Made by a program: the position numbers and the translations under genes. A DNA stretch of 64,000 bases, from positions 1-64,000 of the IMG/VR virus record IMGVR_UViG_3300029959_000812; one strand, 5' to 3'. This stretch comes from a virus. Positions 13,138 to 43,894 of the stretch are shown in pieces. Each line of letters begins with the position of its first letter. The stretch's first letter is position 1. Under the pieces are notes generated by a model. The model was given only the letters and a program-made list of their open reading frames with translations. It searched no databases and was not told the origin of the DNA.

Positions 13138-13142
13138 CTTTT

Positions 13143-16358: not shown

Positions 16359-16490
16359 TTCCAATTTCTTTTTAGGAATTGGGTATTAGCGTGTCGCTGA
16401 TGAAATGTGGTTGAACGGCACAGCATTGCGGGACGTGCTCTAGCGCTTTTACGGGCGCAAGTCCCGCATTATAACTTTTATTTGATCGTC

Positions 16491-20632: not shown

Positions 20633-20753
20633 AAAGCTTAATATAAAGTAATTGCTATAATTGATTGTATAGTAATCGGTTTAGGAGTAATCGTTTACAG
20701 ATGATTTCAAAATATGATAATTCTGCATTAATAATATTGGGAGCGTGTAGATA

Positions 20754-27198: not shown

Positions 27199-30100
27199 TG
27201 GCGATGGGCGACAGTCCTAGCGGCGTAGTAATCTGGCAGGGACAGGCAATGCCATTATCGCAGTATAACGCTTCTACAGGCCAGAATGTCGGCGGGGTAA
27301 ACGTTGTAACGGGCGCGCCTTCCGGTACGACTTCGGGCGGATCAGTTGTTACTACTTTTAGGCCGTCGTCTATTGATATTAACGAAGTCAGATCTCGTTA
27401 TGCCGGCTCATACGGCGGAATAGCTGCTAGCTATGCGACAGAAAGCGATTTGTACATGGCTGCACGGCAATGGTACGGTAACAGTGTAAACGTGACCGGT
27501 AGCCTTCCACAGTCGATTGTAGGCGGCGGAAGCGGCAGAGTCGTTGATAATGCCCCAGGGTTCAGCCAGGGCCAGATATCTAACGTCGTGGTCGGCCCTA
27601 ATAACATCGGAGTCTTCTTTAATAGTCCGGGCGCTGATATTGGCAGCGGCGCGTCTTTTTCAAACCTATCCGCAATGGACCAACAGGCAGTTATAAATTA
27701 TGCTGCCGCTAATAACATCAACATATATAACCGGTCCGCGTATACACCGGTAAATCCTGTTTTTACTGTTAACGGTCCTGTCGTCGTTATTCCTGATATT
27801 GGCGGGGATTCCTTTGAGGCTTCGAGGGCTTATCTATCACAATTTCCGAGCGGAACGCCTGTTAAGCTTGAAAACAGTCCCACGATTGCTTTTGTGTGGC
27901 AGGGCGGCATGATTAATAGCGCAGGTCAATACTATACGGGTTACGGTCCGGCTACTCCGGGCAATGTGCCAGGGGGCATTACGGGTACAATTACCGGGGT
28001 GGTGCAGGGACCGCCCGATACTTATAGCGGCCCCGTAATGGTCAGCAATGAAGGGTATGGACAGGGTAATATTATGGTCGTACAGCCGACAGCACCGCAA
28101 CAGATTACGGCAAACCCGTTCGGCGGACTCCCTGGAGCGGTCACGGCTCAACAGATGAGCACCGGACGCGGCGGAACAGCACCGTTATCTAATTACGTGC
28201 CTACAAGCGTAACGGCGCACCCGATGGACGCGGTATCTTATGGCGGCGGCGGTGTCGTGCCGTTTATGTCTGCCGGGTTTTCGTTGCCGAAATATACTGA
28301 TCAGACTATGACGGCATCTATGGCCGGTTGGCAGGGCGTACAAAACTCTGTTAACAAAGTGCCCTCAAACACGTATAATTGGGGCGGATATACTGCCGTT
28401 GATGTTATCGGGGCGCGTGGACTCGTAGACTTTGGGCAGGGCGTATCCTCATATTTTGAAACCGTCACTATGAGCGTTGAAAACGTTGTCGGAAGCGTCC
28501 CGTTTTTTGGCGGCCCCTTAAAAGCCGGAGTCGGCTTTGTAGGCTCTGGCATCGGCACCGTTGCGGGCGGTATCCCAACGTTGTTTGGCGTGGCAGCTCT
28601 CGGCGGCGAAGCACTAGGCGAACAGATACAGCAGCAATATGCGAAGGGCAACAATTTCCCCGTGTTTCGTGGCGCCGTCGATTGGATGACGGGGAATTAT
28701 AATGTCGTCGTAGGCAATTCCGGGCCGGGCGTCGTCGGGAGCATGGGGATCATGGCCGGGCGTCAGGCAGATAGGATCATGCAAGATCCCTGGAGCGGAT
28801 TTGGCGAGACTGCCGGTATGCTCGCGCCCGCCGTTATAGCTGGTGGCAAGTTTAGCGCAAAAATGGGCTGGACCGGTGGTCCCGGCAGCGCGGTTATTAG
28901 CAGGATAAGCGGGACTGCTGGCGATAGCATGTTAACCGGCGTTATGTCGCGGGGCATGTTCGACGATATTAAAATAAGCGTTAAAGCGGCGTATACAGAG
29001 TTTAGGAACCCGGAATACCGGGGCGTTGTAAGTGCCGGTGTTGACACTATCAAGACTGCGGACAATATCGGTTATCGAAACGTCGTAGCGCCCGACTATT
29101 CTTTATCGTCTAATATTCCGAAGGACATTTACCCGGTGCTTGATAATGTGCTTAATTCTGTGCCTAACGAGTTGAACCGGGCTTATGGTGGCATTACGCA
29201 ATCACAATTCAAGTATTTCGAGCCGCGCATTACTAGCGACCTTGATATTCTCGGTAGGAGTGCGCCGGACGTGGCTTTAAGGGCAGTCGAACAGCTTAAC
29301 TATAGGTTCCCCAGCGAAGCTTACGCGGATGGCACACAGGTATATTTCAGAGGTGCGAAAATCCTTGATATTCACGACGTTGTAAATCCGGGCGAAGGCG
29401 GCGGCATGACTTTCAAAGTATTGCCGACGATCAAGACGAGCCAGATCTACAGGGCGGGCGTAGACTATGCGACCGGGATAAGCAGCGAAGATTTGACCTA
29501 TGGCCTAATGCGAAAATCACAGGCGGTAATCGAGGATACGATCAACCCGGCGAAAAACTACAGATTAGGCAAAGACCTTTACGACTACGTATCATACAGC
29601 CGAGAACTATCTATGCAAGATAGTATTCTCGGAGATCGGCTTAACGTGAATGTCGATAAGATGTTAAGACAAAACTTTCCCTATGAGCTGGAATCGGGAG
29701 TTGTCACGACGAAAAGCGGGCTTGAAATCTACAAGATGATGCAAGAAAAATACGCTCCCACAAACATCCGGGAAGGCCCGTTAGACGTTTACGTATCAAG
29801 TACGCCTAAAAATAGTGGCGTAGTAACAATATTCGATAACGCTGGCGAAGCGGGCATTTTCTCACAATATGACGTATCACCGGGCACGAGCCGATATAGC
29901 TCGATGTATGAAAACATATTCGACAACAGCTATACTAATACGCCCAGGTCTTACAACGAACAGTCATATGAAAGCCCCTCGATTTTCGGAAGCTATTTGC
30001 CAAGAATAGAAATGCCGAGCTATGGCATATCACCGAATAATAACATATTTGAGCCTTCATATGGTTCGTCTTACGGCCCCTATGATCCGCCTTCGATACC

Positions 30101-30413
30101 GTCACCGATACCATATAGCCCGCCGTACAGCCCACCTTATAGCCCATCCATCGGGCCGTATGATCCGCCTTCGATACCGTCAGTAATACCATATAGCCCG
30201 CCTTATAGCCCGTATGAGCAGCCGTATGATAATTCAAAATATTATGACGGAAACGGAAGCGATAACGGATCATACAAACCAGATAGTATCGACTATGACT
30301 TTTTCGGCCAGGCATATGTTAACTTTGATTTCGACGACGGCTATAACTTCATGGGACCGCGCAGACAGACGCGCAAAAAGGGAAAAAGCAAGAAAGGAGG
30401 ACACAAGAAATGA
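27198..30413 (+). CDS. Large protein A2 (1071 aa from ATG 27198), paralog of A1
   Basis: Same conserved N-terminus, C-terminal motif and basic tail as A1. The start is chosen by homology with the A1 start context. Confidence 0.85.
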   Translation: MAMGDSPSGVVIWQGQAMPLSQYNASTGQNVGGVNVVTGAPSGTTSGGSVVTTFRPSSIDINEVRSRYAGSYGGIAASYATESDLYMAARQWYGNSVNVTGSLPQSIVGGGSGRVVDNAPGFSQGQISNVVVGPNNIGVFFNSPGADIGSGASFSNLSAMDQQAVINYAAANNINIYNRSAYTPVNPVFTVNGPVVVIPDIGGDSFEASRAYLSQFPSGTPVKLENSPTIAFVWQGGMINSAGQYYTGYGPATPGNVPGGITGTITGVVQGPPDTYSGPVMVSNEGYGQGNIMVVQPTAPQQITANPFGGLPGAVTAQQMSTGRGGTAPLSNYVPTSVTAHPMDAVSYGGGGVVPFMSAGFSLPKYTDQTMTASMAGWQGVQNSVNKVPSNTYNWGGYTAVDVIGARGLVDFGQGVSSYFETVTMSVENVVGSVPFFGGPLKAGVGFVGSGIGTVAGGIPTLFGVAALGGEALGEQIQQQYAKGNNFPVFRGAVDWMTGNYNVVVGNSGPGVVGSMGIMAGRQADRIMQDPWSGFGETAGMLAPAVIAGGKFSAKMGWTGGPGSAVISRISGTAGDSMLTGVMSRGMFDDIKISVKAAYTEFRNPEYRGVVSAGVDTIKTADNIGYRNVVAPDYSLSSNIPKDIYPVLDNVLNSVPNELNRAYGGITQSQFKYFEPRITSDLDILGRSAPDVALRAVEQLNYRFPSEAYADGTQVYFRGAKILDIHDVVNPGEGGGMTFKVLPTIKTSQIYRAGVDYATGISSEDLTYGLMRKSQAVIEDTINPAKNYRLGKDLYDYVSYSRELSMQDSILGDRLNVNVDKMLRQNFPYELESGVVTTKSGLEIYKMMQEKYAPTNIREGPLDVYVSSTPKNSGVVTIFDNAGEAGIFSQYDVSPGTSRYSSMYENIFDNSYTNTPRSYNEQSYESPSIFGSYLPRIEMPSYGISPNNNIFEPSYGSSYGPYDPPSIPSPIPYSPPYSPPYSPSIGPYDPPSIPSVIPYSPPYSPYEQPYDNSKYYDGNGSDNGSYKPDSIDYDFFGQAYVNFDFDDGYNFMGPRRQTRKKGKSKKGGHKK
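30081..30215 (+). repeat. 78-bp in-frame tandem duplication inside A2 (PYDPPSIPSxIPYSPPYSP)
   Basis: TATGATCCGCCTTCGATACCGTCA…ATACCATATAGCCCGCC occurs at 30081 and 30159. Confidence 0.8.
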
Positions 30414-30646
30414 ATTTTAATACATATTCGTGGGGAATGAACAGCAGACAGTACAGACAGGAACAGCAAGCACAGAACCAGAGGCAACAGGCAGAAAGAG
30501 CGAACGAGCAGCGCCGGGCTAATGCTGCCAGGGTAAAACAGCAAGCACACAGAGTACAGGCACGCCCGCCAGCTTTCAAATGGACAAGCGGAGTTAGCGG
30601 TTTCGAGGTCGGTAATATCCTTAGCAGGGTGAAAAGCTTTTTCTAA
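30410..30646 (+). CDS. Gln/Arg-rich 78-aa protein
   Basis: ORF track. ATGA overlap with the A2 stop. Confidence 0.5.
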   Translation: MNFNTYSWGMNSRQYRQEQQAQNQRQQAERANEQRRANAARVKQQAHRVQARPPAFKWTSGVSGFEVGNILSRVKSFF

Positions 30647-30798
30647 GGATACTATTTTTTTTATTTTCGGCATGTGCAATATTATGATTATCAAAATGTT
30701 TCGGAAACAAACAAAACGGTGTATACAAACCTAAACAAACATAGTGACCGGTTTGTCTTGGTCCCGGTCGCCTAATAATAATTTGGAGTTGATTGTTT

Positions 30799-31146
30799 AT
30801 GGAAGACGGGGAAAACTTTAGACGTTTTGAACGAAAAAAGGCGGATGTTAAAACACTTATTTTAGCTTGCCCTATTCCTGTTACTAAGAGAGAAAAACAA
30901 TTATATATTAACGCTATGGCTAGGTGTTGCGGTTTAACGTTAAATGAACTTTATATTTTACTTAAAGATACCGCTGTTATAGGTAACATCTCCGACGTGG
31001 ACCCGGCATTATTGAAAAAGTTTACCGAATTATACCAATACAAGCTGATGAACGACCGACCGCTTAATTGGCGTTTATCTAATTCGACAAAGCCAGTTAT
31101 AGCCACGTCTAGTCTTTTTTGTTGTTATCGGTGGTCTCTATGGTGA
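30799..31146 (+). CDS. Hypothetical 115-aa protein
   Basis: ATG at 30799 within the track ORF. Its 3' end overlaps the convergent AbrB-like gene. Confidence 0.4.
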   Translation: MEDGENFRRFERKKADVKTLILACPIPVTKREKQLYINAMARCCGLTLNELYILLKDTAVIGNISDVDPALLKKFTELYQYKLMNDRPLNWRLSNSTKPVIATSSLFCCYRWSLW

Positions 31147-31252
31147 CTTGTACCCAATCGCCGGGCTTTAATTTTAAATAGTCCACGATGTTTTTTGGTA
31201 CTGTGATCCGGTTTTTGTATTTGTTTATTTGAGCTTTGAAACTTTCTTTCAT
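31109..31252 (-). CDS. AbrB/SpoVT-type DNA-binding protein (47 aa)
   Basis: Manually translated MKESFKAQINKYKNRITVPKNIVDYLKLKPGDWVQVTIETTDNNKKD. The RITVPKxIxxxLxLKPGDxV core is typical of SpoVT-AbrB domains. Confidence 0.65.
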   Translation of the reverse strand: MKESFKAQINKYKNRITVPKNIVDYLKLKPGDWVQVTIETTDNNKKD

Positions 31253-31255
31253 TAT

Positions 31256-31320
31256 TGGTACTTTGTACCATAATTTATTTATAGCTTGCTATCCAATCGC
31301 TTATATGGTACAAAGTACCA
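31256..31320. promoter_or_regulatory. Divergent promoter region with two TGGTAC-N3-GTACCA palindromes
   Basis: TGGTACTTTGTACCA at 31256-31270 and TGGTACAAAGTACCA at 31306-31320 flank the AT-rich TATA-like TTTATTTATAG. Confidence 0.5.
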
Positions 31321-31336
31321 TAAGGAGGTAAATGAA

Positions 31337-31615
31337 ATGGAAGAAAATACCAGAACATTAACAGAGATCAGGTGTCCGTGTTGTGGCATAATGGTCCCGG
31401 TGGAAATCATACTACACGCAAGCCCATTAGACAAGTACATCGAGTACATAACCGATCAAAACAGTTACATAGATGAAACCGACGAGAAAAAGACATGGCC
31501 CGTGATCCACCTGGAGATGGAAGCCGACACGAAACGACTGATAGAAGATCAGGCGGTAGAAAAATACCATGACAAGCTCGTTAAAATCGGCATGGCCGAA
31601 CCATTAACCAATTAA
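31337..31615 (+). CDS. Hypothetical 92-aa protein with a CPCC motif
   Basis: ATG at 31337 lies 7 nt after AAGGAGGT. The track ORF starts at 31286 with a non-ATG codon. Confidence 0.55.
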   Translation: MEENTRTLTEIRCPCCGIMVPVEIILHASPLDKYIEYITDQNSYIDETDEKKTWPVIHLEMEADTKRLIEDQAVEKYHDKLVKIGMAEPLTN

Positions 31616-31774
31616 CTTTAACAAAAACGTCTTTTTCTAATTTTCATAGGGTTTCTATCCTGTGATTATCTACAGGCTTTCAAATTTGACCGTAGAGCGA
31701 CTTTTAAGGCATGGGTAATAGGAGAAGTACCCACAGACCTACAATTTAAATTTGTATTAAGTAGAATATTCAGT

Positions 31775-32106
31775 ATTTCATCCCTGCGCGCGCGGGCGTG
31801 AGGCTGTCAGCCAGGCAGATAAGCTTACCAGTGTAATTTCATCCCTGCGCGCGCGGGCGTGAGTAACGGCACTGTTAAGGTTACAGAGACATCGACATTT
31901 CATCCCTGCGCGCGCGGGCGTGAGGAAATCGGCTTGAAGCCGATCATCTAAACTAGAATTTCATCCCTGCGCGCGCGGGCGTGAGGTTTCCATTCGTAGG
32001 CTCTGGATTACGGGGGCTATTTCATCCCTGCGCGCGCGGGCGTGAGGGGAATCAAAGGGAACTAATTTCCCCTTGAAAGTAGTCTCCCTGCGCGCGCGGG
32101 CGCTAA
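31775..32106. CRISPR. Cas-less mini-CRISPR array: 5 perfect 28-nt repeats, 1 degenerate repeat, 5 spacers (33/33/33/33/32 nt)
   Basis: Repeat ATTTCATCCCTGCGCGCGCGGGCGTGAG at 31775, 31836, 31897, 31958 and 32019. Degenerate copy at 32079-32106. All spacers are unique. Confidence 0.9.
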
Positions 32107-32126
32107 TATGGTAAAAATGTTAGACT

Positions 32127-32930
32127 CTAATCATCATCGTAATAATGTCCAGGGCAATCTTTGATGTTTGCTCTCCCATCGCATAATGCTTGTATCATTT
32201 GTGTCTTGTCATGGTGCCATATGGGTATGCGAGTGCGGCAATTCTGGCACTCATCCGCGATGCCTTCAACTTTCGGCTGTTCCGGTTCGACGGGTTTCTT
32301 TTTAGATTTTGATTGTCTTTTCTTTTTGGGCTTCTCTATTTGCTCTTTGTTAGAGTCTAATTCGTCTATTTTGTCCCAAACGATTTTATTATTTTCATAA
32401 TGGACATTTGAGACAATCCCATCACGTCTAACCATAAATGAGCCGTCAGAGCTTTCAAACTCGATTTTATTATTCTTGTCGGCTTCGATTGCTTCCTTTA
32501 ATATCATAGTTCTCTTCTTAAGCCTAATATCATCAATTGCACAATATACGAGCCTATATACTGTGTCATCATGCGGGAAAGTCGTATCCATATCAAGAGG
32601 ATTATCGCACATGCCGGAAGCCATGACGTACATAGCATCTGTTGAAATATCCGCTGCGATCTGGTCAGCATCTATTTTTGCTATAAGTTCTTTTGACCGC
32701 TGTTCAGTGTATTTTATAAACTGTTCGCGCTTTTCCGTGTCGGTTAATTCGCGCCCATGTACGAGCGATGCTATGCGGTATTGTTTAAATTCGTCAACCT
32801 CTGCCTGGAGCCGTCTGTTTTCTATTGTAAGTCGTTCAACCTCTGCCTGGAGCTGTTGACTAAGCGGAAGTTCCCCGGCTCTTCGACGCTTCATATATTC
32901 TTTTTGATATGCTGTCTTATCGAATGACAT
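32127..32930 (-). CDS. Coiled-coil protein with a C-terminal Cys/His zinc-binding motif
   Basis: 267 aa with LQAEVERLTIENRRLQAEV repeats and CQNC…H..…C…C.GH at the C-terminus. The stop lies 21 nt from the CRISPR array. Confidence 0.7.
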   Translation of the reverse strand: MSFDKTAYQKEYMKRRRAGELPLSQQLQAEVERLTIENRRLQAEVDEFKQYRIASLVHGRELTDTEKREQFIKYTEQRSKELIAKIDADQIAADISTDAMYVMASGMCDNPLDMDTTFPHDDTVYRLVYCAIDDIRLKKRTMILKEAIEADKNNKIEFESSDGSFMVRRDGIVSNVHYENNKIVWDKIDELDSNKEQIEKPKKKRQSKSKKKPVEPEQPKVEGIADECQNCRTRIPIWHHDKTQMIQALCDGRANIKDCPGHYYDDD

Positions 32931-32992
32931 TAGAGTCTAACCTCATACTATTATGTTAGAGTCTAACTATAAATAGATTGTGAGAGTCTAAC
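32930..32992 (-). promoter_or_regulatory. Promoter/operator cluster: three TTAGAGTCTAAC boxes around a TATA-like CTATAAATAG
   Basis: Boxes at 32930-32941, 32956-32967 and 32982-32992. Further copies lie at 32350-32360 and, inverted, at 32120-32130. Confidence 0.5.
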
Positions 32993-33309
32993 GCGCACGG
33001 CGCGTTCATTCATTTTTATATTAATAATGAAGACGGCGTCTGCGTCTTAGAAAAGAGTATAAATAGGAAAACTACTTATTTTCACAGTTTTAAAAAGTAT
33101 CCTGTTTTGATTAATATATTACTTTATTGCATTTTACAAATCAGGGGTGCAAAACGTACCTATGGCATTAAAGGCTTGTTTTATGGCTACGTATGCCGAA
33201 AAGCACATAATTAGATACAAACGTGTAAATACTCGTTGTTCAGAATATACCCACTGAACAAGACCGTTTGTACATAATTTTTAAATAGTTATCAGTCGTT
33301 ATATCAATC

Positions 33310-34602
33310 ATGCCTAAGATCGATAGGACTGACCGGTTCCATAAAACGGCTGACCAGTGGGAAACGTACATTGAAACTAAATTTCAATCTGCATTGAAAA
33401 GCAATACTATCACAAAAGACGATTATACGCTTATTCGTGCCTTTATTGAAGCGAAAAAGGGTAAGAACACCGAGTATATGACGCTATATCATATCCTCAA
33501 TTTTATTGTACTATGGCGTACTTTTATGAAAGTACCTTACCGTAAAGCTATTTTAAATGACTTCTTATCGGCAAAAGTAGATATGGAAAATTCGACTAAC
33601 AAAACCGGTCAACCGCTTTATTCTAAAACCTATCAGAAAGTTATGGTTGTAACTGTAAAAGGGTTTTTCAGATGGGGCTTAAAAGAATCGAAAATAAAAA
33701 CGTTAAACAAATGGTCAAAAATTAGCGAAGCGCAAATCAGGGATGAGATTAAACCGGTTAAATGCAAGCTAAAAAGCAAAAAGGCCGACGACATCATGAA
33801 AGCCGATGAAATATCAAGGCTTATCGATGCTGCCGACAATTCGCGGGATAGATGCATGATGTCGCTTCAATACGAGTGCGCTTTAAGAGCTGTTGATCTT
33901 GGGCGGCTTCGATGGAGCGACATTACACAGATAAGCGAAAGAGAATCTTCAATAGTCGTTAATAGCAAGACAGATTACGAAAGGCACATATCCACTGTAC
34001 TATTTAACGGATACCTGAATACCTGGAAACGTGACGCTACAAACGCAAGCGATAAGAACGGGTTCGTATTTCTCACGTATGGGACGTGTCAACAGATAAC
34101 ACTTGATGTCGTGCGCGACGTGGTTAAGAACGCTGCAAAGCGGGCGGGCATTACTGACCGGCAAGCGACTCCGCACACGTTGAGACACAGCCGGATCACC
34201 TATTGGTTACAGCATGACGTATCTATCGCCAAAATATGCCTTATGGCATGGGGTGTCGAGTATTCGCCGATGATTAAGACGTATGCCCATTTAGGCAACG
34301 ATGAGACAGCAAAAGAACAGCGCAGGCTTGCAGGCATCAAAGAATCGGAGATCGTGCAGGTTGGCACAATCGAGCTTAAACTATGCCCGGTTTGCGGACT
34401 GAACAGCCCGCCCGGGAAAGGCTTTTGCGGCGGGTGCGGTTCACCGCTTACAGAGGCCGCTATAAACGCTCGCGAACAGGCTAAAAACGACGCTATAAAC
34501 TCTAAAAGCATTACTACGGCAGAAAAGTTTGTTAACGCTCTATTATCGAGCAATATATCAGAGGATAAGCTCTTAGCTCTTATCGAAGGGCTCAAAAAAT
34601 AG
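33310..34602 (+). CDS. Tyrosine recombinase/integrase with a C-terminal zinc ribbon
   Basis: ALRAVDLGRLRW (Arg I), HTLRHSRITYW (HxxR), KTYAHL (Tyr), then CPVCG…CGGCG. Confidence 0.9.
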   Translation: MPKIDRTDRFHKTADQWETYIETKFQSALKSNTITKDDYTLIRAFIEAKKGKNTEYMTLYHILNFIVLWRTFMKVPYRKAILNDFLSAKVDMENSTNKTGQPLYSKTYQKVMVVTVKGFFRWGLKESKIKTLNKWSKISEAQIRDEIKPVKCKLKSKKADDIMKADEISRLIDAADNSRDRCMMSLQYECALRAVDLGRLRWSDITQISERESSIVVNSKTDYERHISTVLFNGYLNTWKRDATNASDKNGFVFLTYGTCQQITLDVVRDVVKNAAKRAGITDRQATPHTLRHSRITYWLQHDVSIAKICLMAWGVEYSPMIKTYAHLGNDETAKEQRRLAGIKESEIVQVGTIELKLCPVCGLNSPPGKGFCGGCGSPLTEAAINAREQAKNDAINSKSITTAEKFVNALLSSNISEDKLLALIEGLKK

Positions 34603-34966
34603 TCCTATGGAATTTTTTTGCCTCTTTTTTAGAAAATAATATCGTACATGGAACTCATTTTTTATTATTTTCTTGATTTTATTCGGCATACAGCGCTTAC
34701 TACTTAACCGCAAGCTATATATTATAGCAATGACTTGTATAATATGCGAACGTTATACAAACCATTGTATAACCGCTGGAATAGGAGAGAAAAAGAAAAA
34801 TTGATTGAACAGGTGATTAATATATGATTCTGAACATGACAGCACACGCCCCCGGCGACGTGAATAAGTACCGGCTGACGTGTTCAGATACGCGCACTCG
34901 CCGGGTATAAGCGCAAAAATCTTTTCTGCAACTGTCGGCCCTTCACGATAACAGGACCGATAAAGT

Positions 34967-35155
34967 ATGACCTTAAGAGTTTGCCCAGTTTGTAACGGGC
35001 AGTTTGACGACGAGACCAAATATAGGACGTGCCAGGCATGCAGGCGGGCGTTTATCGCAGCCGGTCGCAGAGGCGGCACCAACACATTAACACGCCACGG
35101 CGTAGAACATTTTACCAAAATCGTAACTGATAGACACAACGGAGCTGGTAACTAA
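34967..35155 (+). CDS. Zinc-ribbon protein (62 aa)
   Basis: CPVCN…CQAC. First gene of a tightly overlapping plus-strand operon. Confidence 0.5.
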   Translation: MTLRVCPVCNGQFDDETKYRTCQACRRAFIAAGRRGGTNTLTRHGVEHFTKIVTDRHNGAGN

Positions 35156-35310
35156 TGCAGGCCGGCCCGATCAAAGTTTACTCGCAGGATGTTATTAACT
35201 CACTGCCATTAGTTCACCGGATAGCGTTGCACATGGAAGCGCAGGCAGGCCGGTGTAGAATTGTCGATACACAGGGACGCGACGTTGTAAAAGCGGGAGG
35301 CGTAAACTAA
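35155..35310 (+). CDS. Hypothetical 51-aa protein
   Basis: Manually translated (MQAGPIKVYSQDVINSL…). TAATG overlap upstream. The next start follows 1 nt after its stop. Confidence 0.4.
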   Translation: MQAGPIKVYSQDVINSLPLVHRIALHMEAQAGRCRIVDTQGRDVVKAGGVN

Positions 35311-35311
35311 T

Positions 35312-35599
35312 ATGTTTTTAGAAAAAACAAAAAATAGAAATTCGCGCCCCAAGGGGATCTACGAATCTAACGGCACTGCATTGTACGACGCGGGAGTAGA
35401 TAAGGCTTTCCCGTCGAGCTATCAGATTTACAACGCTTTACCCGAGGATTATTCGACAATATCCGAGAAAACCCTCGCTAACAAAACCGGTAAATCCCTG
35501 ATCTTCATCGAAGCGACATTAACTAGGCTATTGGAACAGAAAATGGCTTACGTGTATTGCGAGGGCGGGATCACGTTCGCAGCGAGGAGGCGGCATTAG
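35312..35599 (+). CDS. Winged-helix-like protein
   Basis: ISEKTLANKTGKSLIFIEATLTRLLEQKM. Confidence 0.5.
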   Translation: MFLEKTKNRNSRPKGIYESNGTALYDAGVDKAFPSSYQIYNALPEDYSTISEKTLANKTGKSLIFIEATLTRLLEQKMAYVYCEGGITFAARRRH

Positions 35600-35600
35600 T

Positions 35601-35816
35601 ATGCAGGACTTTTATAGAAATGCTGTCTGCTGTCAGATAAGAATGTCTCGCGGCACAACACGGACCATTATTGCCAAAACCCTCCGCATGAGCCTTAATC
35701 GGGTTGATCGTTACGTTGGTTATCTAAAATATTATAAGAAGATTACCGAGGACAAAGACGGGATACTTTATCCAGCGCCAGAAACGCGCCGGACCTGCGG
35801 AGGTCGGGCCGTATGA
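35601..35816 (+). CDS. HTH/winged-helix-like protein
   Basis: TRTIIAKTLRMSLNRVDRYVGYL. Confidence 0.5.
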   Translation: MQDFYRNAVCCQIRMSRGTTRTIIAKTLRMSLNRVDRYVGYLKYYKKITEDKDGILYPAPETRRTCGGRAV

Positions 35817-36775
35817 CCTCACCAGAACAGATGAACAATGCCGCTGTTAAGACTTTACACAATGGCATTAAACTATTTCCCGTCGAAGGCATCCATAACG
35901 GATACTGCACCTGTGGGCGAAAGGTTAACGAGTGCACACAGAAAAGCGGGAAGGTCCAGGCGGGAAAACATCCAATATTAAAACTTGGAAGCTGGACACG
36001 TCTTAGCACCAATAACCCGGAGAATTTACTTGCATATCTGTTTGAAGTGCCGGGCCGAAATCTTGCTTTCCATGCTGGAGCTAATAACGCAATTATAACA
36101 GACTTCGACGACGAGGAAGGGTGTAAAGCGTTTGAAAAACTATTTGCCGAACATCCCGAATGGTTCGATACTCCAGCAGAGAAAAGCGGCAAAGGCTATC
36201 ACGTATTGCACCGTCAGACCGTCGAACCAGTAGAGGCTTTTAACACAGTGTACGGCGAGGTTCGCACCGGCGACATGTATTGTGTTACTGCACCGAGCAA
36301 CCATTACAGCGGGGCAGAATATCGGGCACTCGAAGGCCATGCACTATATGAGAAGCCCCTATTAGAAATGCCGGGCGCATTTCTGGCTTATCTTAACAGT
36401 ATAAGGAAATCTAAGCCTGTTAACGTCGAACAGACAACGATAAAGCCGATAATTGGGAACAATCACGATAGGATATTTTCAAAGTATGATCTTCCGTCTT
36501 GGCTTGTCTCTCAATTGAAAAAAGGAAGTACCGCAAATGATAGAAGCGGGGCATTATTCCATGAAGCTTGTACTTTAATCGCCTATAGCGTGGATGACGC
36601 GGATATTTATTACCTGTTGGAATATTCGCCAAACAACAAATTCAACGGAAGACATGACGAACAGAAGCGCATAAACGCCACTATAAACGAGGCTAAATCG
36701 TCTGTAGGTAAGAAGAGACAGGATAGGATACAAGAGCGTAAAAGGGCTTTGTCGTCGCTCAAGGGGGCTTTCTAA
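35813..36775 (+). CDS. Archaeo-eukaryotic primase superfamily prim-pol
   Basis: AEP motif I IITDFDDEEG, motif II SGKGYHVLH, and an N-terminal LFPV…GKHP pattern like bifunctional prim-pol domains. Confidence 0.8.
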   Translation: MTSPEQMNNAAVKTLHNGIKLFPVEGIHNGYCTCGRKVNECTQKSGKVQAGKHPILKLGSWTRLSTNNPENLLAYLFEVPGRNLAFHAGANNAIITDFDDEEGCKAFEKLFAEHPEWFDTPAEKSGKGYHVLHRQTVEPVEAFNTVYGEVRTGDMYCVTAPSNHYSGAEYRALEGHALYEKPLLEMPGAFLAYLNSIRKSKPVNVEQTTIKPIIGNNHDRIFSKYDLPSWLVSQLKKGSTANDRSGALFHEACTLIAYSVDDADIYYLLEYSPNNKFNGRHDEQKRINATINEAKSSVGKKRQDRIQERKRALSSLKGAF

Positions 36776-38811
36776 TGGAAGCCTATGCAGTTGTACCCGA
36801 GAACATCCTCAAGCAAGGTCGAGATGATGACACGATCCGAAGCATGTACGAAAAAAAGTATAATGAAATATTGCCTGCCGACATGGATATTGAATCCATT
36901 ATCAAAAACGGTCACATGTCAAAGGATAATCTCATTAGCCTTATCAAAGATGCTAAGACATCGACATTGACAGCTATAAGTAATCTGTTAGCGGGCCGTA
37001 CTCCTGTCGATCTGGAAGAATATAGCGCGGACGAATTTAAAACATTCAAAAAATATATGGGCGTAAGAAAATGGCTTAACGGATACCTGGAAATCGCCAA
37101 AGAAACAGAAAAAAATGGCAACATGGCGGCCAATATGAGTAATGAAAAATTTAAACTCATATTTGCTGTCACGGAAAAGATGGGTAAAGACGTAGATGAT
37201 GCTGACAGTATTCCTGATGCCGCATACATTAGCGAACTTATGAATCAAGACGAATTTGTTATGGATACTGACAATGAATATTATGTAATTGTCAATGACA
37301 TAAAGGGTATACGGCGGATTATCAGCATTTACAGCGAGGACTACAAAGCGCAACTATGTAACAGGTTTGAAACTATATTCGGTAAGCCCTCCGGGGAATC
37401 CGCTATAAAAAACGCGATACGTGCCAGGAGAGCGAAGATAACAAAGAGAATTAACTTGTTCGTCCGTGTCGCTGGGGAATCGATGTATACGAAAGACGCG
37501 AAGGTATACTATGATTTGAAGGATGGCCGGGCGGTCCAAATTGTGCCCGACGAAAAAGGCGATGGCGTCAGCATTGTACCCAGGCCGTTAATCTTTAAAG
37601 ACTTCGGATGTATGGGCGAACAGATCGAACCGGATCTAACCGCAAAAATTGACGACATCAAAGAATTATACCGGATATTAGATATGCGTGTACTGCCGAC
37701 CGACGAAATAGAAACGGATAACAAAGGCAGGATATTAACCGACGAAAAGAGCATGGATAAACTGTTTGCTCGTAACGAGTATACGGACCGGGTAAAAAAT
37801 TTCTTGGTATGCTGGATGCACTATAACCTTATGCCATTCAATACCGATAAGCCCGGTCTCGAGATCGACGGGCCACCGGGCAGCGGCAAAACAAGTCTCG
37901 TAAAAAAGATTGTTGGACTTGTTGATCCTTTGAACAGCGAAGATTTAGCAGCTCTCGAAGAAAACCGCGAGAACCTGATACTTTCATTGTCACAGCGTCT
38001 TATACCGGCATTTGACAACGTGAGTTATCTTAGCAGGATGCAAAGCGACGTATTTTGCCAGGCGGCAACAGGTATTACTTTTCAGCGACGGGTAAGATTT
38101 ACAGATAACGATATGGCATTAAACACTATACGCCGGTCGTGTATTCTTAACGGTGTAGGCAACCCGTTATCCATGAATGATGTTGGAGAAAGATACGCTT
38201 CGATTAAGCTTAGACCATTAGGAGAAAACGAAGGGAAACCGCTTAACGAGATCTGGAGAGATTACAACGAAAAGAAGTCTTTGATACTTGGGGCTATGTT
38301 CAAAATCGTTAGCAGGACGTTGTATACTATCGCCGCCGAAAAGTTGACCACAAAGAAAGATCACCGGATGTTAGACTTTGTTAGAATTTGCCGGGTGGTC
38401 AGCGAGACAATAACGAAGAACAGCGCAGACGATTTCGAGAACATATACAACGAATTACAGGACGATCAAAGCTCGGAGATACTTGCCAATGATATTGTGG
38501 CTCAACTATTAATAAACCGTTACGAGCATCTTAAACCTGGAGAAAGCACAAAACAGATGAAGCTTACGGACCTAAAAACAGAGCTGATATTTCAGCATCT
38601 TGGTGAAATCGGCGCTAATGGAAAGCACATTGCTGATGAAGTTGAACGCGAATTAACTAATCTGTCTCCTAAAACGTTTGGCGATAGGTTAGCTATGAAT
38701 ATTAAAGACCTTCAAAAAATAGGCTATAAGGTGTCGTTGTTAAAGCCCAGGGCTAAAACCGGGCAATATTCGTCCCGTTGGGTATCAATCAAAAAGTTAG
38801 ACGTTAATTAA
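36775..38811 (+). CDS. SF3 (D5/P4-like) replicative helicase / NTPase
   Basis: Walker A EIDGPPGSGKTS, Walker B-like LIPAFDNV. Translationally coupled to the prim-pol. Confidence 0.8.
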   Translation: MEAYAVVPENILKQGRDDDTIRSMYEKKYNEILPADMDIESIIKNGHMSKDNLISLIKDAKTSTLTAISNLLAGRTPVDLEEYSADEFKTFKKYMGVRKWLNGYLEIAKETEKNGNMAANMSNEKFKLIFAVTEKMGKDVDDADSIPDAAYISELMNQDEFVMDTDNEYYVIVNDIKGIRRIISIYSEDYKAQLCNRFETIFGKPSGESAIKNAIRARRAKITKRINLFVRVAGESMYTKDAKVYYDLKDGRAVQIVPDEKGDGVSIVPRPLIFKDFGCMGEQIEPDLTAKIDDIKELYRILDMRVLPTDEIETDNKGRILTDEKSMDKLFARNEYTDRVKNFLVCWMHYNLMPFNTDKPGLEIDGPPGSGKTSLVKKIVGLVDPLNSEDLAALEENRENLILSLSQRLIPAFDNVSYLSRMQSDVFCQAATGITFQRRVRFTDNDMALNTIRRSCILNGVGNPLSMNDVGERYASIKLRPLGENEGKPLNEIWRDYNEKKSLILGAMFKIVSRTLYTIAAEKLTTKKDHRMLDFVRICRVVSETITKNSADDFENIYNELQDDQSSEILANDIVAQLLINRYEHLKPGESTKQMKLTDLKTELIFQHLGEIGANGKHIADEVERELTNLSPKTFGDRLAMNIKDLQKIGYKVSLLKPRAKTGQYSSRWVSIKKLDVN

Positions 38812-38833
38812 ACAGACTCTTTTTCTTTTTTTT

Positions 38834-39186
38834 GTTGTGGGTTTTTTGTGGATGATTCTTTTTTAATTTAGGCATATATTACTATATTTTTCTAATAGTA
38901 GTAGTTAATAAAATAATAATAGTTGTGGGTAAGTTGTGGGTAAGTTGTGGGTAATGAAATTAGAAAATACTATTTATATATGCCTAAATTAAAAAAAAAG
39001 TTGTGGGTATTGTGGGTTTTATTGTGGTATCGTTCCAAGGGGGTAAATACTATTTTTATTAGAATTAATTAGAATATTTTAAAAATGTTATACCCCTTCT
39101 AAAAGTCTTTGATTTTACCCACAAAATCCACAAACCCACAACTTTTAAGGCGAGGCTATTGGATTTATATTAAAAAACACCCACAA
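38834..39186. repeat. Iteron field (candidate replication origin): >=7 forward and 4 reverse copies of the TTGTGGGT core, a 3x11-nt tandem (38921-38953), and a 38-nt imperfect inverted repeat (38859-38896 / 38959-38996)
   Basis: Read directly from the sequence. Forward cores at 38834, 38922, 38933, 38944, 39000 and 39010 (plus partial copies). Reverse ACCCACAA cores at 39117, 39134 and 39179, with ATCCACAA at 39127. Confidence 0.6.
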
Positions 39187-39479
39187 TTATATTAATAAAC
39201 TAATTTATTAAATCATAATCGTATACAATAAATTATCTATCTTATATATACTAAAATCTATTTTTATATGTTATAATCAAATAGTGTTAACTCATTTTGT
39301 AAACTTTGTAAGTCATTATTAGTAGTGTTAAAGTATAGCACGGTCTAATAGTAGACTATTAGCCTGGAGATCCGGCAGCTCTCAAAATTTTTTCAAATTC
39401 GAGAAAGTGAGAAAAATTGATGTGTCTTATCAACATAATTAATCTAAAATGTAGAATAAACCTTTAAATTATATGTTCC

Positions 39480-39526
39480 CTGGATAAATTGATTTGGATT
39501 TTACACTCTGATTGATTATTGCGGAC
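39480..39526 (-). promoter_or_regulatory. Conserved 47-nt element, diverged copy C
   Basis: CTGGATAAATTGATTTGGATTTTACACTCTGATTGATTATTGCGGAC aligns with copies A and B. No ORF is obvious downstream. Confidence 0.3.
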
Positions 39527-39567
39527 GAAATGCATATTGTTGTTGTCATTGTTATTTTCTATTGTAA

Positions 39568-39963
39568 TTAAAAAAAGCCGTTATTCCTTTCAAAGTAGTT
39601 TGTATATGTGTAATCTTGGTTTTTCTTTTCGCCGGATCTCTTTTTCTTATTGTGTATGTGCACGTTGACAACTGTTGCCCGGTTTGTGTCTCTTTCGTTT
39701 TTGGTCTTTTTGTTTTTTGGCTTGTGACTTGTCGGGGCCGGTTTGTTGACTCCCTGTATGCCTTCTCTGTATCCGTGCTGATAATTAGCTTTTACGTATT
39801 CGCCAGGTCTTTGCAGTACAGCCAGGGCGCGCCCTAGCTCGTAGAATATTGGCACAAGTAATCGATTGCTCGTTATAATATTAAATTTATCTGTTTTGCC
39901 CTGCAATCGATTTTCTGTAGCATCTTGGTATCTTTCTATCCTATGGCTTACTCGGTGCATCAT
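39568..39963 (-). CDS. Basic protein, paralog of 16491..17009
   Basis: Shared motifs FYELGRA, NYQHGYREG, TVVNVHIHNKKKRS and YFERNNGFF. Confidence 0.6.
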   Translation of the reverse strand: MMHRVSHRIERYQDATENRLQGKTDKFNIITSNRLLVPIFYELGRALAVLQRPGEYVKANYQHGYREGIQGVNKPAPTSHKPKNKKTKNERDTNRATVVNVHIHNKKKRSGEKKNQDYTYTNYFERNNGFF

Positions 39964-39970
39964 ATTGCGT

Positions 39971-40017
39971 CTGGCTGGGTTGATTTGGAAATTACACTTT
40001 ATTCATTTAAGGGGGCA
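39971..40017 (-). promoter_or_regulatory. Conserved 47-nt element, copy B, directly upstream of 39568..39963
   Basis: CTGGCTGGGTTGATTTGGAAATTACACTTTATTCATTTAAGGGGGCA differs from copy A at only a few positions. Confidence 0.5.
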
Positions 40018-40103
40018 TGTCAGCTTTCGCTCTCTCTCTCTCGCTCTAACACTATTCCTGCTAAATGAAAGAATAATTAAGAAGATAAATATAAAAAGAT
40101 TAA

Positions 40104-40670
40104 TTAAAATATAGATTCATCAAGTTCAGGGACATACATTCTCTGTATGTCTTCCTTAGTAAAGCTCTTAGGGATAGGCTCTACCTTGCAGGGAGTCATG
40201 ACAGGCAGGGCGACAGGCGCGCAGACAGGGATAGGCTCTGCCTTGCTAACTAGCAGCTCTCCATTAGTTCGTAACGCTAACCACTCATCAAGCATTAGGT
40301 TATCGTCGCTGTTCTCGTATTCTACATATAGGCTATAGTCTAATGTCAACACGTCGAAGTCGAGGGCGCAGGTTCGACAATGTAAACGTCGTTCTCCGGG
40401 CCGGTTCTTGTCTACTGCAAAATAAGTATTTAGTCCGTCACATTCTGGGCATTTGCGCGCGTTTTTCCCGTGGTTGTTAATGAAATAGTTTCGTTGATTG
40501 ATGAAGTCACATATTTTATCGAATCCGCCAGGATACTTTTCACAAAAACGCGTGTATCCTAACTTTTCAAAGCTTGCTAAAAGCTGTCCCTGTTCATCGT
40601 TTTCTATCTTCGGCATTTCAAGGTTTTTGAATAATAATACAAAACGTTCGCTCATGGTTTCACCTTTCAA
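40104..40670 (-). CDS. Zinc-ribbon protein (188 aa)
   Basis: CPECDG…HCRTC. GAAAGGTGA SD lies upstream. Confidence 0.65.
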   Translation of the reverse strand: MKGETMSERFVLLFKNLEMPKIENDEQGQLLASFEKLGYTRFCEKYPGGFDKICDFINQRNYFINNHGKNARKCPECDGLNTYFAVDKNRPGERRLHCRTCALDFDVLTLDYSLYVEYENSDDNLMLDEWLALRTNGELLVSKAEPIPVCAPVALPVMTPCKVEPIPKSFTKEDIQRMYVPELDESIF

Positions 40671-40862
40671 TTCTTGCGCGGTTTATTCCAATATCTGTTG
40701 CTGCACTTCGGGCAACTGACAGGAGGTTTTGACTGTCTAGGGAACCATTCGTGCCCACAGCGCAGACATCGGCGTTTTTTTATTTTAACCATATGCCTAA
40801 CTATCTATCGCTAACTATATATACCTACCGAACATATACGGTACTTAGCATATAAATAGAGT

Positions 40863-40905
40863 GCCGCATATGTGCGGGTTTCGACCTTCCCCGTACATAT
40901 GCGGC
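40863..40905 (+). other. 16-bp stem / 11-nt loop hairpin between a TATA-like box and the B2 operon
   Basis: GCCGCATATGTGCGGG-TTTCGACCTTC-CCCGTACATATGCGGC, with one G-T pair. Confidence 0.6.
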
Positions 40906-40928
40906 GGATAATATAAAGGTGAAAATCC

Positions 40929-41213
40929 ATGCCCCCGCGATTTACCGAGACCATTAAAATGCTGCCCGTGCTTCTACGTAAGCCGAAATATCAAAAAATG
41001 GCGCTAGAATATTCTATCGTAACGACTTTTTCAACCGGTTTGATCTGTATCTGTATCACGGGTTTTCAGCCGGTGAGCCGTCAGCCGGAGCTTTTCGGCA
41101 GATGTTTACCGTTTATTTTCCTTGGCGCGGTCCTCTCGCTCATATACTTTGTAATGTTTTTGATGGAAGGCCGGCCGGGCATTGGATTCCTTCGCAGGGG
41201 TGAAACGAAATGA
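40929..41213 (+). CDS. Small membrane protein (2 TM)
   Basis: AGGTGA SD lies upstream. ATGA overlap with the B2 start. Confidence 0.5.
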   Translation: MPPRFTETIKMLPVLLRKPKYQKMALEYSIVTTFSTGLICICITGFQPVSRQPELFGRCLPFIFLGAVLSLIYFVMFLMEGRPGIGFLRRGETK

Positions 41214-43894
41214 AAACAAAATTTTTTGTTATACTCGCAATCGTAGCATTAGCCTTGATAGCAGGCACAGCGAGCGCGACGACTCCGGCAAATTATAGTC
41301 TTAGCGCTTCGACGTATGACGTTTATGATAATGCTGGTAGTCTTTCGGTGTCTGTCACGGCGAGTATGACGGCTAATCCTGGTTATGAGGATGGGCTTAC
41401 CGGTTGGGCGTTGTTTGGTTCAGGGGCTAGTGCTAGTTCCTCTGTTGTACATAGCGGCATTGGAAGCGCATATGTTGTAAGCACTACGGGCAATTTTATT
41501 GGTGCGTCGCAGCGTGTTTTGGCTACGGGCGGCGAAACGTTAATGTTAGACGCTTATTGTTATCCGACAGCATATGTTGGAGCTAATAGCGTTTATGTCC
41601 AAATATATCAGTATAATGCTACTGGTGGCATAATCGGCACGTATACTATCGCCGCGCCTTCGACATTGAACCAGTGGCATGAACTAACCGGGACATTTAC
41701 AACAAATGCCAATACTGTAAACGTACTGGTTAGCATAATTACGTATGATGGCAGCATAGCATATTTTGACGATGTAAAACTAATACCCGTCTCTTATACG
41801 GGCAGCGTAGACTATGCCACCGCAGACGGAACCGCGACGGCAGGATACGATTATACCGCGACTAGTGGCACGTTGAGTTTCGCAGCGGGCGAAACAAGCA
41901 ACACGTTTACAGTGCCGATTATTAACAGGGACGCATATTATGGAAGTCGAAGTTTTAACGTTGCCCTTTCAAGTCCGGTTAACGGTAATGTGACGAGTCC
42001 GAGCAGCGCCACGGTTATGATAGCCGATACGCATAGTTCGATTAGTCCTATAAGTACCGGATACCGGTATTTGTATGTTAGTAATTGGGATAGCAGCAGT
42101 ATCACCGTGATCGACCCTAACCTACCCGCTAAAGTGGGTACGATATTGACAAGGGCTAAACCTTTAGATGTTGTTGTAAACCCGGCTGGCACGCTTTTAT
42201 ATGTTACGTATAGTCAAGCTACGCCTAGCGGTACATATGTTGATGTGTTTAATACGATTGATTATAGTAATGTTGCCAGCATACTTGTAAGTTCAAATCC
42301 GACTAGCCAATATTGCAGTATAACAATAAATGATGTTGGCACCCGCGTCTATGTTGGGTTGTATATTGATAACAAGGTCGTGGCGATAGATACTATCAAT
42401 AACATTGTTATAGACGATGTGACAATACCATATCCTGATTATGGTCTCGGTTATTTTAACGGCTACTTGTATGTGACCAGTTATCAGGATTTTGATACTA
42501 ATAGCGGAACGGTCTGGAAAATTGATTCTAACACGCTGGATATTATTAATCACATTCCTAATGATACTGTAAATTATCCTCGCGACGCTGTCATAGATAG
42601 GGCTAATGGGGTGCTTGCGATTTTAAACAACAATGATACGATTACTAGTGTGCCACTTAGTACGTTTATTCCGACTGGTGTTGCAACTACGGCACCTATA
42701 ACCGGGCCATTTGGTATATCGTATAATAGCAGCGGGTATGTTTTCGCAGGGTTTCCGGCAAATCCGAGCATTATAGCTTACTTTAAATTTAACCAGACTA
42801 CTCAAAAGTATTCTTTTGTAGCTAATACTGAAACCGGGTTTACAGATATCAACGACGTATATTATGATATTTATAATAATACTTTGTGGGCTACAAAAAG
42901 AACTACTGGTGACGTATATATTTATGATGCAAACAATAAAACCACATTAGGCTATATCCATAGCGGTAATGGGGCATTACGTATTAGTGTAGGCACGCAG
43001 GCAACTAGGGCGGTACAGTTAACACAGTTTAAACTTACTACGCTTGGCTATCTTGGACTTGATAACGTTCCAACAGCAGTATACCTTAATGGCTATTTGA
43101 TGTTCACAGGAGTAACAGACGGTAACGGCGTATTTGCGTGTTACCTGAATCCAACATCGACGTACCAGGTAGCATTTAACAGTCCTGCAAACGGCGTCAA
43201 CGCAACGTATACGATTACACCGACAAATTCGTATTATGGTTTTGATCAGCCGTTCCTGGACGTTATCGGCGGTCAGTTCTCTAATCTTTTAGGTCCGATT
43301 GTGACGCCTGACAGTTTTGGTAATCAGAGTCAGGTATCATATCAGCAGAGTGCAGACTTCGATCAGGTTAGCAATACCGGGTACATCAACGGATCGTATG
43401 TTGATTATAGCGGCGCTACTACCGCGTTATCGTTTAAACTGTACGGGAACAATTCGACCTTTGGCGGAACTCCGACGCTGATCGAGACACAGACAGCCGG
43501 GGCCGGTGGGAACTATAACTTTACTGTACTCGATGCGGGCGGAAATAGTTATTATGTAGAAATTACTGCAACGCAGAGCGACGCGAGCACTAAAAAATAT
43601 TATCCGCAGGGCGTCGGGTTTCCGGGACAAATTGTATTAGCAGAGACCGGTATAAGGCTTGATTGGCTGTTCTATATTGGAATGGCTATCCCATTGTTTA
43701 TTTGGGGTGCTGGCGTAGTTACAAGGCGTGGATATATGGGGTTTATTGGCACTGTTGCTGCTGGAATCATCGGTGGATATTGTTGCTGGTATCGTGTGTT
43801 TATCCCTGATTTGTTATTTTGGTCGGCGTTTGCGGCTTGTATGATTCTTTCTATTGGAGTGATTATTGTTGATGCGGAAAAATGGGGTAGGTAA
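41210..43894 (+). CDS. Surface protein B2, paralog of B1 (CBM-like, Calx-beta, divergent beta-propeller, Ig-like region, TM anchors)
   Basis: The N-terminal ~200 aa are almost DNA-identical to B1. The C-terminal ~300 aa are highly similar. The central ~330 aa are diverged. Confidence 0.85.
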   Translation: MKTKFFVILAIVALALIAGTASATTPANYSLSASTYDVYDNAGSLSVSVTASMTANPGYEDGLTGWALFGSGASASSSVVHSGIGSAYVVSTTGNFIGASQRVLATGGETLMLDAYCYPTAYVGANSVYVQIYQYNATGGIIGTYTIAAPSTLNQWHELTGTFTTNANTVNVLVSIITYDGSIAYFDDVKLIPVSYTGSVDYATADGTATAGYDYTATSGTLSFAAGETSNTFTVPIINRDAYYGSRSFNVALSSPVNGNVTSPSSATVMIADTHSSISPISTGYRYLYVSNWDSSSITVIDPNLPAKVGTILTRAKPLDVVVNPAGTLLYVTYSQATPSGTYVDVFNTIDYSNVASILVSSNPTSQYCSITINDVGTRVYVGLYIDNKVVAIDTINNIVIDDVTIPYPDYGLGYFNGYLYVTSYQDFDTNSGTVWKIDSNTLDIINHIPNDTVNYPRDAVIDRANGVLAILNNNDTITSVPLSTFIPTGVATTAPITGPFGISYNSSGYVFAGFPANPSIIAYFKFNQTTQKYSFVANTETGFTDINDVYYDIYNNTLWATKRTTGDVYIYDANNKTTLGYIHSGNGALRISVGTQATRAVQLTQFKLTTLGYLGLDNVPTAVYLNGYLMFTGVTDGNGVFACYLNPTSTYQVAFNSPANGVNATYTITPTNSYYGFDQPFLDVIGGQFSNLLGPIVTPDSFGNQSQVSYQQSADFDQVSNTGYINGSYVDYSGATTALSFKLYGNNSTFGGTPTLIETQTAGAGGNYNFTVLDAGGNSYYVEITATQSDASTKKYYPQGVGFPGQIVLAETGIRLDWLFYIGMAIPLFIWGAGVVTRRGYMGFIGTVAAGIIGGYCCWYRVFIPDLLFWSAFAACMILSIGVIIVDAEKWGR

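Follow-up and report, generated by a model that had tools for sequence, protein, structure and literature searches.

An integrase, mini-CRISPR and replication block as the candidate native maintenance backbone of a 65.6-kb circular archaeal element

The stretch of DNA analysed here, hereafter the window, comprises positions 1 to 64,000 of IMG/VR virus record IMGVR_UViG_3300029959_000812 and represents 64,000 nt of a 65,639-bp circle, which we take to be a virus or plasmid of an archaeon. The subject is the block at 31.1-39.5 kb of the window, in which a mini-CRISPR (cluster of regularly interspaced short palindromic repeats) array, a tyrosine integrase, replication genes and an iteron-bearing origin-like region lie between two genes, A2 and B2, that are paralogues of the adjoining genes A1 and B1. 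The original prediction offered two readings of this DNA, either as a plasmid-like element nested in a larger virus or as the native replicon of the element, around which the A and B genes had been duplicated.

At its left end the block contains an AbrB/MazE-like open reading frame (ORF) of 47 amino acids (aa) on the minus strand (31109-31252), with a sub-threshold match to the Pfam MazE/AbrB family (E 0.016) and adjoined by two GGTAC-N3-GTACC palindromes (31257-31269 and 31306-31318). A zinc-ribbon ORF carrying a CPCCG motif (31286-31615, plus strand) is followed by the mini-CRISPR array (31775-32107, plus strand) and by a gene for a 267-aa coiled-coil protein with a Cys/His tail (32127-32930, minus strand). 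Five copies of TTAGAGTCTAA, one of them inverted, are distributed around the 267-aa gene (32120-32993), one lying within it, and these copies are probably an operator set. The integrase (33310-34602, plus strand) is XerA-like with a C-terminal zinc ribbon and matches PF00589 with 67.6 bits (cut-off 27.1). The residues of the R...HxLRH...Y signature are present in the alignment as R193, an HTLRHS motif, and Y325, and the nearest solved structure is that of an archaeal XerA/XerC-like protein. Four small ORFs of 62, 51, 95, and 71 aa (34967-35816, plus strand) lead to an archaeo-eukaryotic primase (AEP) of the primase-polymerase (Prim-Pol) type (35813-36775, plus strand; PF09250, 51.8 bits, cut-off 22.8), which is followed by a P-loop replicative helicase/NTPase (36775-38811, plus strand) and the origin-like region (38812-39260). 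Beyond the origin, the minus strand encodes a 131-aa basic protein (39568-39963) and a 188-aa zinc-ribbon ORF (40104-40670).

The helicase retains a conserved Walker A motif (GPPGSGKT) and a PAFDN motif. Among its 17,961 relatives, many are fusions with Prim-Pol, Toprim or PolA, and one carries the annotation 'VirE family'; the protein itself has no sequence match in Pfam, NCBIfam or the PDB. An AlphaFold2 (AF2) model built from 4 sequences was poor, with a predicted local distance difference test (pLDDT) value of 47, and was not adequate for a fold search. The Walker motifs are present, and assignment of the protein to helicase superfamily 3 (SF3) is unproven. The gene inventory of the original prediction therefore holds for the integrase, Prim-Pol, mini-CRISPR, iterons, palindromes, and basic-protein paralogue, whereas the AbrB assignment is weak, the SF3 label is tentative, and the two small ORFs that had been called winged helix-turn-helix (wHTH) proteins match no family.

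Close relatives of the helicase in a word-indexed search were three only, namely two small integrated elements, L007 and L011, and the P0004 contig, where an integrase, a Prim-Pol and a helicase adjoin cellular genes; a profile search added no further matches. The L007 element is 11.8 kb long and sits in a tRNA-Gln gene on a 26-kb contig (JGI 3300048656, Ga0504918_0000924) with archaeal chromosomal flanks of ~60% GC. Its boundaries are two copies of a 16-nt attachment site (att), ATAGTCCCGACCGGAT, one at the 3' end of tRNA-Gln and the other 58 nt upstream of the integrase gene. As in the window, the L007 integrase has a C-terminal zinc ribbon and its gene is followed by four small ORFs and then by the Prim-Pol, the helicase, and the iteron origin, with 75% protein identity for the Prim-Pol, 76% for the helicase (P0002), and ~85% DNA identity for the origin. 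It also carries an AbrB-like gene (L007 15610-15777; E 1.8e-6 to the window ORF) and a 59-aa zinc-ribbon gene. Unlike the window it is integrated and lacks a CRISPR array and any A/B, PKD or glycosylation cargo. Inside its att sites L007 has a tRNA-Arg of its own and a HicA toxin gene (L007 16280-16353 and 17401-17688), and the host DNA just past attR contains three tandem ~460-nt repeats encoding Cys-rich paralogues (listed to L007 18022-19265).

The L011 element (JAEZKS010000140.1, from the Methanobacteriota metagenome-assembled genome OH_CDB_39) is 7.9 kb long and sits in a tRNA-Arg gene, with a 52-nt att at the tRNA and ~95 nt upstream of the integrase gene, followed by Prim-Pol, helicase, and 23-nt iterons. 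It shares with the window the order integrase, Prim-Pol, helicase (34% identical), and iterons, and a homologue of the CPCCG zinc-ribbon ORF lies near its right end (L011 8249-8593, E 4e-6). It differs in its size, in being integrated, in its shorter integrase without a zinc ribbon, and in having no CRISPR array. Because both L007 and L011 carry this gene set within att sites, the comparison supports the view, put forward in the original prediction, that the set is self-contained and of a kind that exists as an autonomous integrative element. By the same comparison, the other known members of the backbone family are evidently small elements (8-12 kb) that integrate at the 3' ends of tRNA genes.

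The position of att in these relatives allows the arrangement in the window to be judged. In L007 and L011 att is found a short distance upstream of the integrase gene, and integration has left the AbrB-like gene (L007) or zinc-ribbon gene (L011) at the end away from the integrase. In the window the AbrB-like and zinc-ribbon genes are still on the integrase side, with only the CRISPR array and the 267-aa gene between them and the integrase gene. The block at 31.1-39.5 kb is thus colinear with the circularised form of L007 and L011, and because this gene order is that of a circular, non-integrated molecule, the block is unlikely to have entered through its own attP. The alignments show the backbone of the window to be in what is evidently an unbroken, episomal arrangement. 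Direct repeats between 30300-33320 and 38800-41300 reach at most 11-13 nt and are mostly AT-rich, with no att-like pair among them, so that the borders do not provide the repeats expected of a nested element. The sequence upstream of the integrase gene (32900-33330) shares no repeat longer than 13 nt with any part of the circle, compared with att sites of 16 and 52 nt in the relatives.

A composition distinct from the surroundings, the other mark by which a nested module was to be recognised, is likewise not seen. The tetranucleotide distance of the block ranks 68 among 132 equal-sized segments, and its GC content is 41.3% compared with 40.6% for the circle. The correlation of its relative synonymous codon usage (RSCU) is 0.75, which lies within the 0.70-0.90 of other blocks, at the low end and not below the blocks at 44-61 kb. 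Gene families also cross the supposed borders. The basic protein at 39568-39963 is a paralogue of the protein encoded at 16407-17009, outside the block (E 2e-12), and the 59-aa gene of L007 is represented in the circle by two homologues in matching relative orientation, a 59-aa zinc-ribbon ORF at 61.4 kb (61402-61581, minus strand) and, at 64.9 kb, a second copy (circle positions 64871-65050) with 85% identity to the first.

The origin-like region contains six TTGTGGGT iterons on the plus strand followed by three on the minus strand, together with an AT-rich core and a 41-nt inverted repeat. All nine copies of TTGTGGGT in the window fall within 38835-39186, compared with 1.6 expected by chance, and no second iteron cluster was found elsewhere in the circle. 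DNA similarity to L007 is limited to window positions 35813-39192 (72.6% identity). The left edge of this shared cassette (window 35806-39200, L007 9030-12400) is sharp, with homology beginning within ~10 nt of the Prim-Pol ATG, and on the other side homology fades near 39200. The non-coding origin, at the ~85% given above, is more similar than the 72.6% of the shared Prim-Pol/helicase/origin stretch as a whole, and most iteron copies share one G-to-A change, being TTGTGGGT (GGGT) in the window and TTGTGGAT (GGAT) in L007. Outside the cassette the integrases of the window and L007 are 28% identical, and the small ORFs have no detectable similarity. These alignments show a 3.4-kb Prim-Pol/helicase/origin cassette that is evidently the unit shared most closely and most recently with the relative. 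The simplest reading would be that this 3.4-kb cassette was swapped between different backbones, for which a nested element of 10 kb is not needed.

In the mini-CRISPR array, the 28-nt repeat ATTTCATCCCTGCGCGCGCGGGCGTGAG occurs five times without variation and a degenerate repeat ends the array, with five spacers of 33 nt each; the repeat folds better as the plus strand. A scan covering ~60 of the circle's larger ORFs matched no cas family, and the array has no match in Rfam, including CRISPR-DR. Spacer 1 agrees at 27 of 33 positions with a site within the circle itself (52821-52853, minus strand). The site lies in frame within an ORF at 52809-53177 (minus strand), and the differences amount to one synonymous and four amino-acid changes, mostly conservative; the best matches of shuffled spacers reach 22-23 of 33. 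The ORF is GINS-like, with matches to NCBIfam Gins23 (E 1.2e-6) and Pfam Sld5 (E 0.002) that are both below the curated cut-offs. For the other four of the five spacers no match was detected. Because the match lies in frame within one of the circle's own ORFs, it suggests that the source of spacer 1 was a relative that had diverged from the large element and that the array is aimed at such relatives. Together, the lack of att, the average composition, the gene families on both sides of the borders, the link made by spacer 1, and the sole iteron origin leave a nested insertion by the block's own integrase unsupported; the native replicon, the other of the two readings first offered, fits better.

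The genes that flank the block are all intact. A1 (20754-24119, plus strand) encodes a 1121-aa protein with no known domain, and its stop codon overlaps the start of B1 (24116-26782, plus strand) in an ATGA, as originally described. B1 is an 888-aa protein with a signal peptide, a CBM_4_9 domain, a Calx-beta domain, and a beta-propeller-like region. After a 103-aa ORF (o103), the A1 paralogue A2 follows (27189-30413, plus strand), and its stop overlaps, again as ATGA, the start of a 78-aa Q/R-rich ORF (30410-30646). The paralogue B2 (41210-43894, plus strand; 894 aa, 64% aa identity to B1) has its own signal peptide, which differs from that of B1, and its start is overlapped in the same way by the stop of a 94-aa membrane ORF (o94; 40929-41213, plus strand). 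The distance from the end of A2 to the start of B2 is 10,797 nt, in agreement with the 10.8 kb first reported. None of A1, B1, A2, and B2 is interrupted, and the second copy has no sharp homology breakpoint matching the A1-B1 junction. Comparison of o94 with the membrane ORF upstream of A1, and of o103 with o117, gave no significant similarity. The A and B genes on either side of the block are thus shown to be dispersed paralogues in the cargo.

At the DNA level the A pair is 86.7% identical over 1,072 nt (20740-21811 and 27184-28255) and 92% identical over 51 nt (24006-24056 and 30303-30353), and the N-terminal ~350 aa of the two proteins are almost identical, the remainder being diverged. 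A search of 5.8 billion proteins with A1 returned A1 itself as the sole match, and the A1/A2 alignment found no relatives among metagenome contigs. The A proteins have a conserved FGQAYVNFDFDDGYNFM motif near the end, followed by a basic tail. The pattern of a near-identical N-terminal part and a diverged rest is seen in both the A and B pairs and resembles exchangeable receptor-binding or adhesin cassettes. The B pair is 91% identical over 734 nt (24185-24918 and 41267-42000) and 79.5% identical over 894 nt (25881-26774 and 42990-43883). It contains an exact direct repeat of 230 nt (24269-24498 and 41351-41580), the two copies being 17,082 nt apart, within a 470-nt tract (24269-24738) that has 6 mismatches (98.7% identity) and densely mismatched flanks. 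The near-identical B1/B2 flanks of ~0.6-0.9 kb in the original prediction are therefore reduced to these 470 nt. Confinement of the near-identity to the tract points to recent gene conversion or crossover. The 230-nt repeat is a plausible recombination substrate, and recombination at the tract could split the circle into a 17.1-kb circle bearing the replicon and a 48.6-kb circle, or in reverse could form a cointegrate from the two.

The circular form of the molecule is indicated by a 48,684-nt contig from the JGI 3300027373 assembly (L008; L004/L008 record Ga0209016_1000443), which runs from window 58360-64000 through 1,639 additional nt (L008 5642-7280) into window 1-13320 with 100% identity. 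Because L008 joins the end of the window to its start in this way, the molecule is a circle of 65,639 bp, which is also the length of the 65,766-nt source contig less a 127-nt overlap. At least four public datasets contain identical sequence (100%), namely JGI 3300027373, JGI 3300001881, ENA ERZ27247094, and SRR6214011. Two contigs, L001 (17,134 nt) and L002 (17,054 nt), cover the arc from B1 to B2 and are 100% identical to the window, and the 48.7-kb contig covers the arc from B2 to B1, so that the 48.7-kb and 17.1-kb contigs sum to the circle. The contigs of the three assemblies other than the source end exactly at the 230-nt B tract, for k values of 141, 127, and 101. Because the repeat is exact, these ends are those of de Bruijn graph edges, and as edges set by the repeat the 17-kb contigs carry no information on excision or connectivity. 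They were considered as evidence for an excised circle and rejected on this ground; the release of a ~17-kb circle that the original prediction envisaged remains physically plausible through the 230-nt repeat. No record matches the B1 or B2 protein exactly, and the joins across the repeat hence have no independent check.

The circle contains another exact direct repeat, 239 nt long, with copies at window 62472-62710 and at circle 65528-65639 continuing into window 1-127, a spacing of 3,056 nt. It encodes an identical 67-aa ORF, and some assemblies also break there. The JGI 3300027373 assembly crossed this 239-nt repeat yet ended at the 230-nt B1/B2 repeat, which could be due to chance or could hint at mixed connectivity of the B tract in that sample.

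The rest of the circle has recombination and replication-related genes of its own. A 199-aa serine resolvase gene overlaps the start of a gene for a 279-aa protein (together 2721-4156) that combines a GIY-YIG-like T5orf172/MUG113 domain with a tyrosine recombinase domain, and this pair is located where gene orientation switches and the cumulative GC skew is at its minimum. An AAA+ ATPase with a C-terminal helix-turn-helix (13824-14810, minus strand) matches a DnaA-like initiator in PHROG (E 1.6e-8) and nothing in NCBIfam or the PDB; it may represent an additional replication or maintenance function located outside the block. Because of the outside recombination pair, the DnaA-like ATPase and the GINS-like gene, a second maintenance system is conceivable. 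A sugar-modification cluster at 7118-10919 encodes a methyltransferase, a GT1 glycosyltransferase, a B12-binding radical SAM enzyme, and a CmcI-type O-methyltransferase, and the circle further contains a 1691-aa PKD/Calx-beta protein and dozens of small orphan ORFs. There are no tRNA or rRNA genes in the circle, and no capsid gene is recognisable in it.

We consider the chances slightly better than even that the 31.1-39.5 kb block is the native maintenance backbone of the 65.6-kb circular archaeal element, with exchange of its replicon cassette. According to this model, the helicase and Prim-Pol would begin replication at the iterons, the integrase would insert the whole circle at a putative attP between the zinc-ribbon and integrase genes, the mini-CRISPR would employ host Cas proteins against related competitors, and recombination would have exchanged the Prim-Pol/helicase/origin cassette between elements. 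Several observations weigh against the model. A scan for tRNA T-arm fragments found none near the integrase, and no attP could be recognised; searches of genome, metagenome and viral collections for the repeat ATTTCATCCCTGCGCGCGCGGGCGTGAG returned no match and thus pointed to no host. Relatives of the large element are also missing, since the helicase, B1, and Prim-Pol found none in IMG/VR and the AAA ATPase and a 462-aa ORF have none in IMG/VR or in phage GenBank records; megablast of 30-42 kb against phage records likewise returned nothing. The join across the 230-nt B repeat was made by the source assembly only, the three others leaving the arcs apart. The resolvase, second tyrosine recombinase, DnaA-like ATPase, and GINS-like gene outside the block, the somewhat higher GC content at third codon positions (GC3) of the block genes (46% compared with 41.5%), and the fact that all known backbone relatives are 5-8-fold smaller and without cargo are further points on this side, and the last of these would equally be predicted by an old, fixed fusion. 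In such a fusion a small L007/L011-like plasmid and a larger virus-like element would have been joined outside attP, with the block no longer separately mobile. The self-contained nature of the backbone relatives, the outside recombinases and replication-related genes, and the modest GC3 difference all favour it, as does the cassette exchange, which shows that replicons recombine between backbones. A fusion is nevertheless unlikely in our estimation, given that no junction scars or repeats were found, tetranucleotide composition is average, paralogues and a family-specific small gene occur on both sides of the supposed junction, and no second origin-like iteron cluster was found.

The remaining alternatives concern the B tract. 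A reversible cointegrate, in which homologous recombination at the tract yields a 17.1-kb circle with A2, the CRISPR array, the integrase, and the replicon and a 48.6-kb circle with the rest, is distinctly unlikely. An exact 230-nt run in 470 nt at 98.7% identity with diverged flanks is what recent gene conversion or recombination leaves behind, the 17.1-kb product would retain the whole replicon, and the JGI 3300027373 assembly resolved the 239-nt repeat and not the 230-nt one; however, the 17-kb contigs are the graph edges expected at each k, and the 48.6-kb product would be without the sole recognisable origin. It is similarly improbable that the molecule is a reversible cointegrate of two distinct partners, joined and separated at the 230-nt B tract, one being a self-replicating, integrative, CRISPR-bearing plasmid of 17.1 kb with its own A/B surface-protein paralogues and the other a 48.6-kb virus-like element in which no origin is recognisable. 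If true, this would constitute a helper/satellite-like partnership in which the small partner gives replication, integration, and anti-competitor functions. Very unlikely, finally, is an assembly chimera, in which separate 17.1- and 48.6-kb circles with one B gene each were misjoined at the 230-nt tract. The assembly graph would be the same for one circle or two, and the arcs are joined in the source assembly only, both points being in favour of a chimera. Ordinary read pairs can, however, span 230 nt, the two arcs are similar in composition (the 17.1-kb arc has tetranucleotide rank 48 of 132), and the links between them, namely 39568-39963 with 16407-17009, A1 with A2, and spacer 1 with the ORF at 52.8 kb, argue for one history.

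With the native backbone as the preferred reading, what appeared to be an element within an element becomes a large archaeal orphan element whose backbone is that of a family of small tRNA-integrating plasmids. Three features lend themselves to testing. One is the 3.4-kb cassette, with an origin better conserved than the whole and iterons that mostly differ by one shared base change. Another is the five-spacer, cas-less mini-CRISPR in the variable region of the putative attP, with a spacer against a diverged version of the element's own GINS-like gene. The third is the exact 230-nt repeat, at which assemblies break and through which two circles could fuse and resolve.

Small archaeal plasmids with a Prim-Pol and helicase are represented by the pRN1 family and by the plasmid-virus hybrid pSSVx of Sulfolobus. 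The plasmid pH6Ac of Methanothrix harundinacea (NC_016637.1) is likewise a small circular replicon of an archaeon encoding a Prim-Pol and a P-loop helicase, and differs in being very distant (25% helicase identity), in having what is apparently a single 1124-aa fusion protein, and in having no annotated integrase. Nesting of the kind first proposed for the window is known from mini-Yucahu-i, a 2.6-kb element inside a 10.9-kb integrative and conjugative element (ICE) of Atabeyarchaeia, for which both integrated and circular forms were shown by reads (PMC11529989). Whereas that nesting is read-supported, the present case, judged on sequence alone, has no att repeats and has the synteny of the non-integrated form. 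The mini-CRISPR finds its closest parallel in the mini-arrays of the Sulfolobales viruses SPV1 and SPV2, in which the carrier's own locus differs from the spacer and so escapes targeting (PMC6858448). As in those viruses, a short cas-less array is carried by a mobile element and has a spacer resembling a gene of the carrier; the array described here has five spacers rather than one or two, with a detectable match for one of the five. Public data contain hardly any relatives of the element itself. In kind it holds nothing surprising: archaeal Prim-Pol/helicase integrative elements and mobile mini-CRISPR arrays are both known classes, and here they are joined to orphan cargo.

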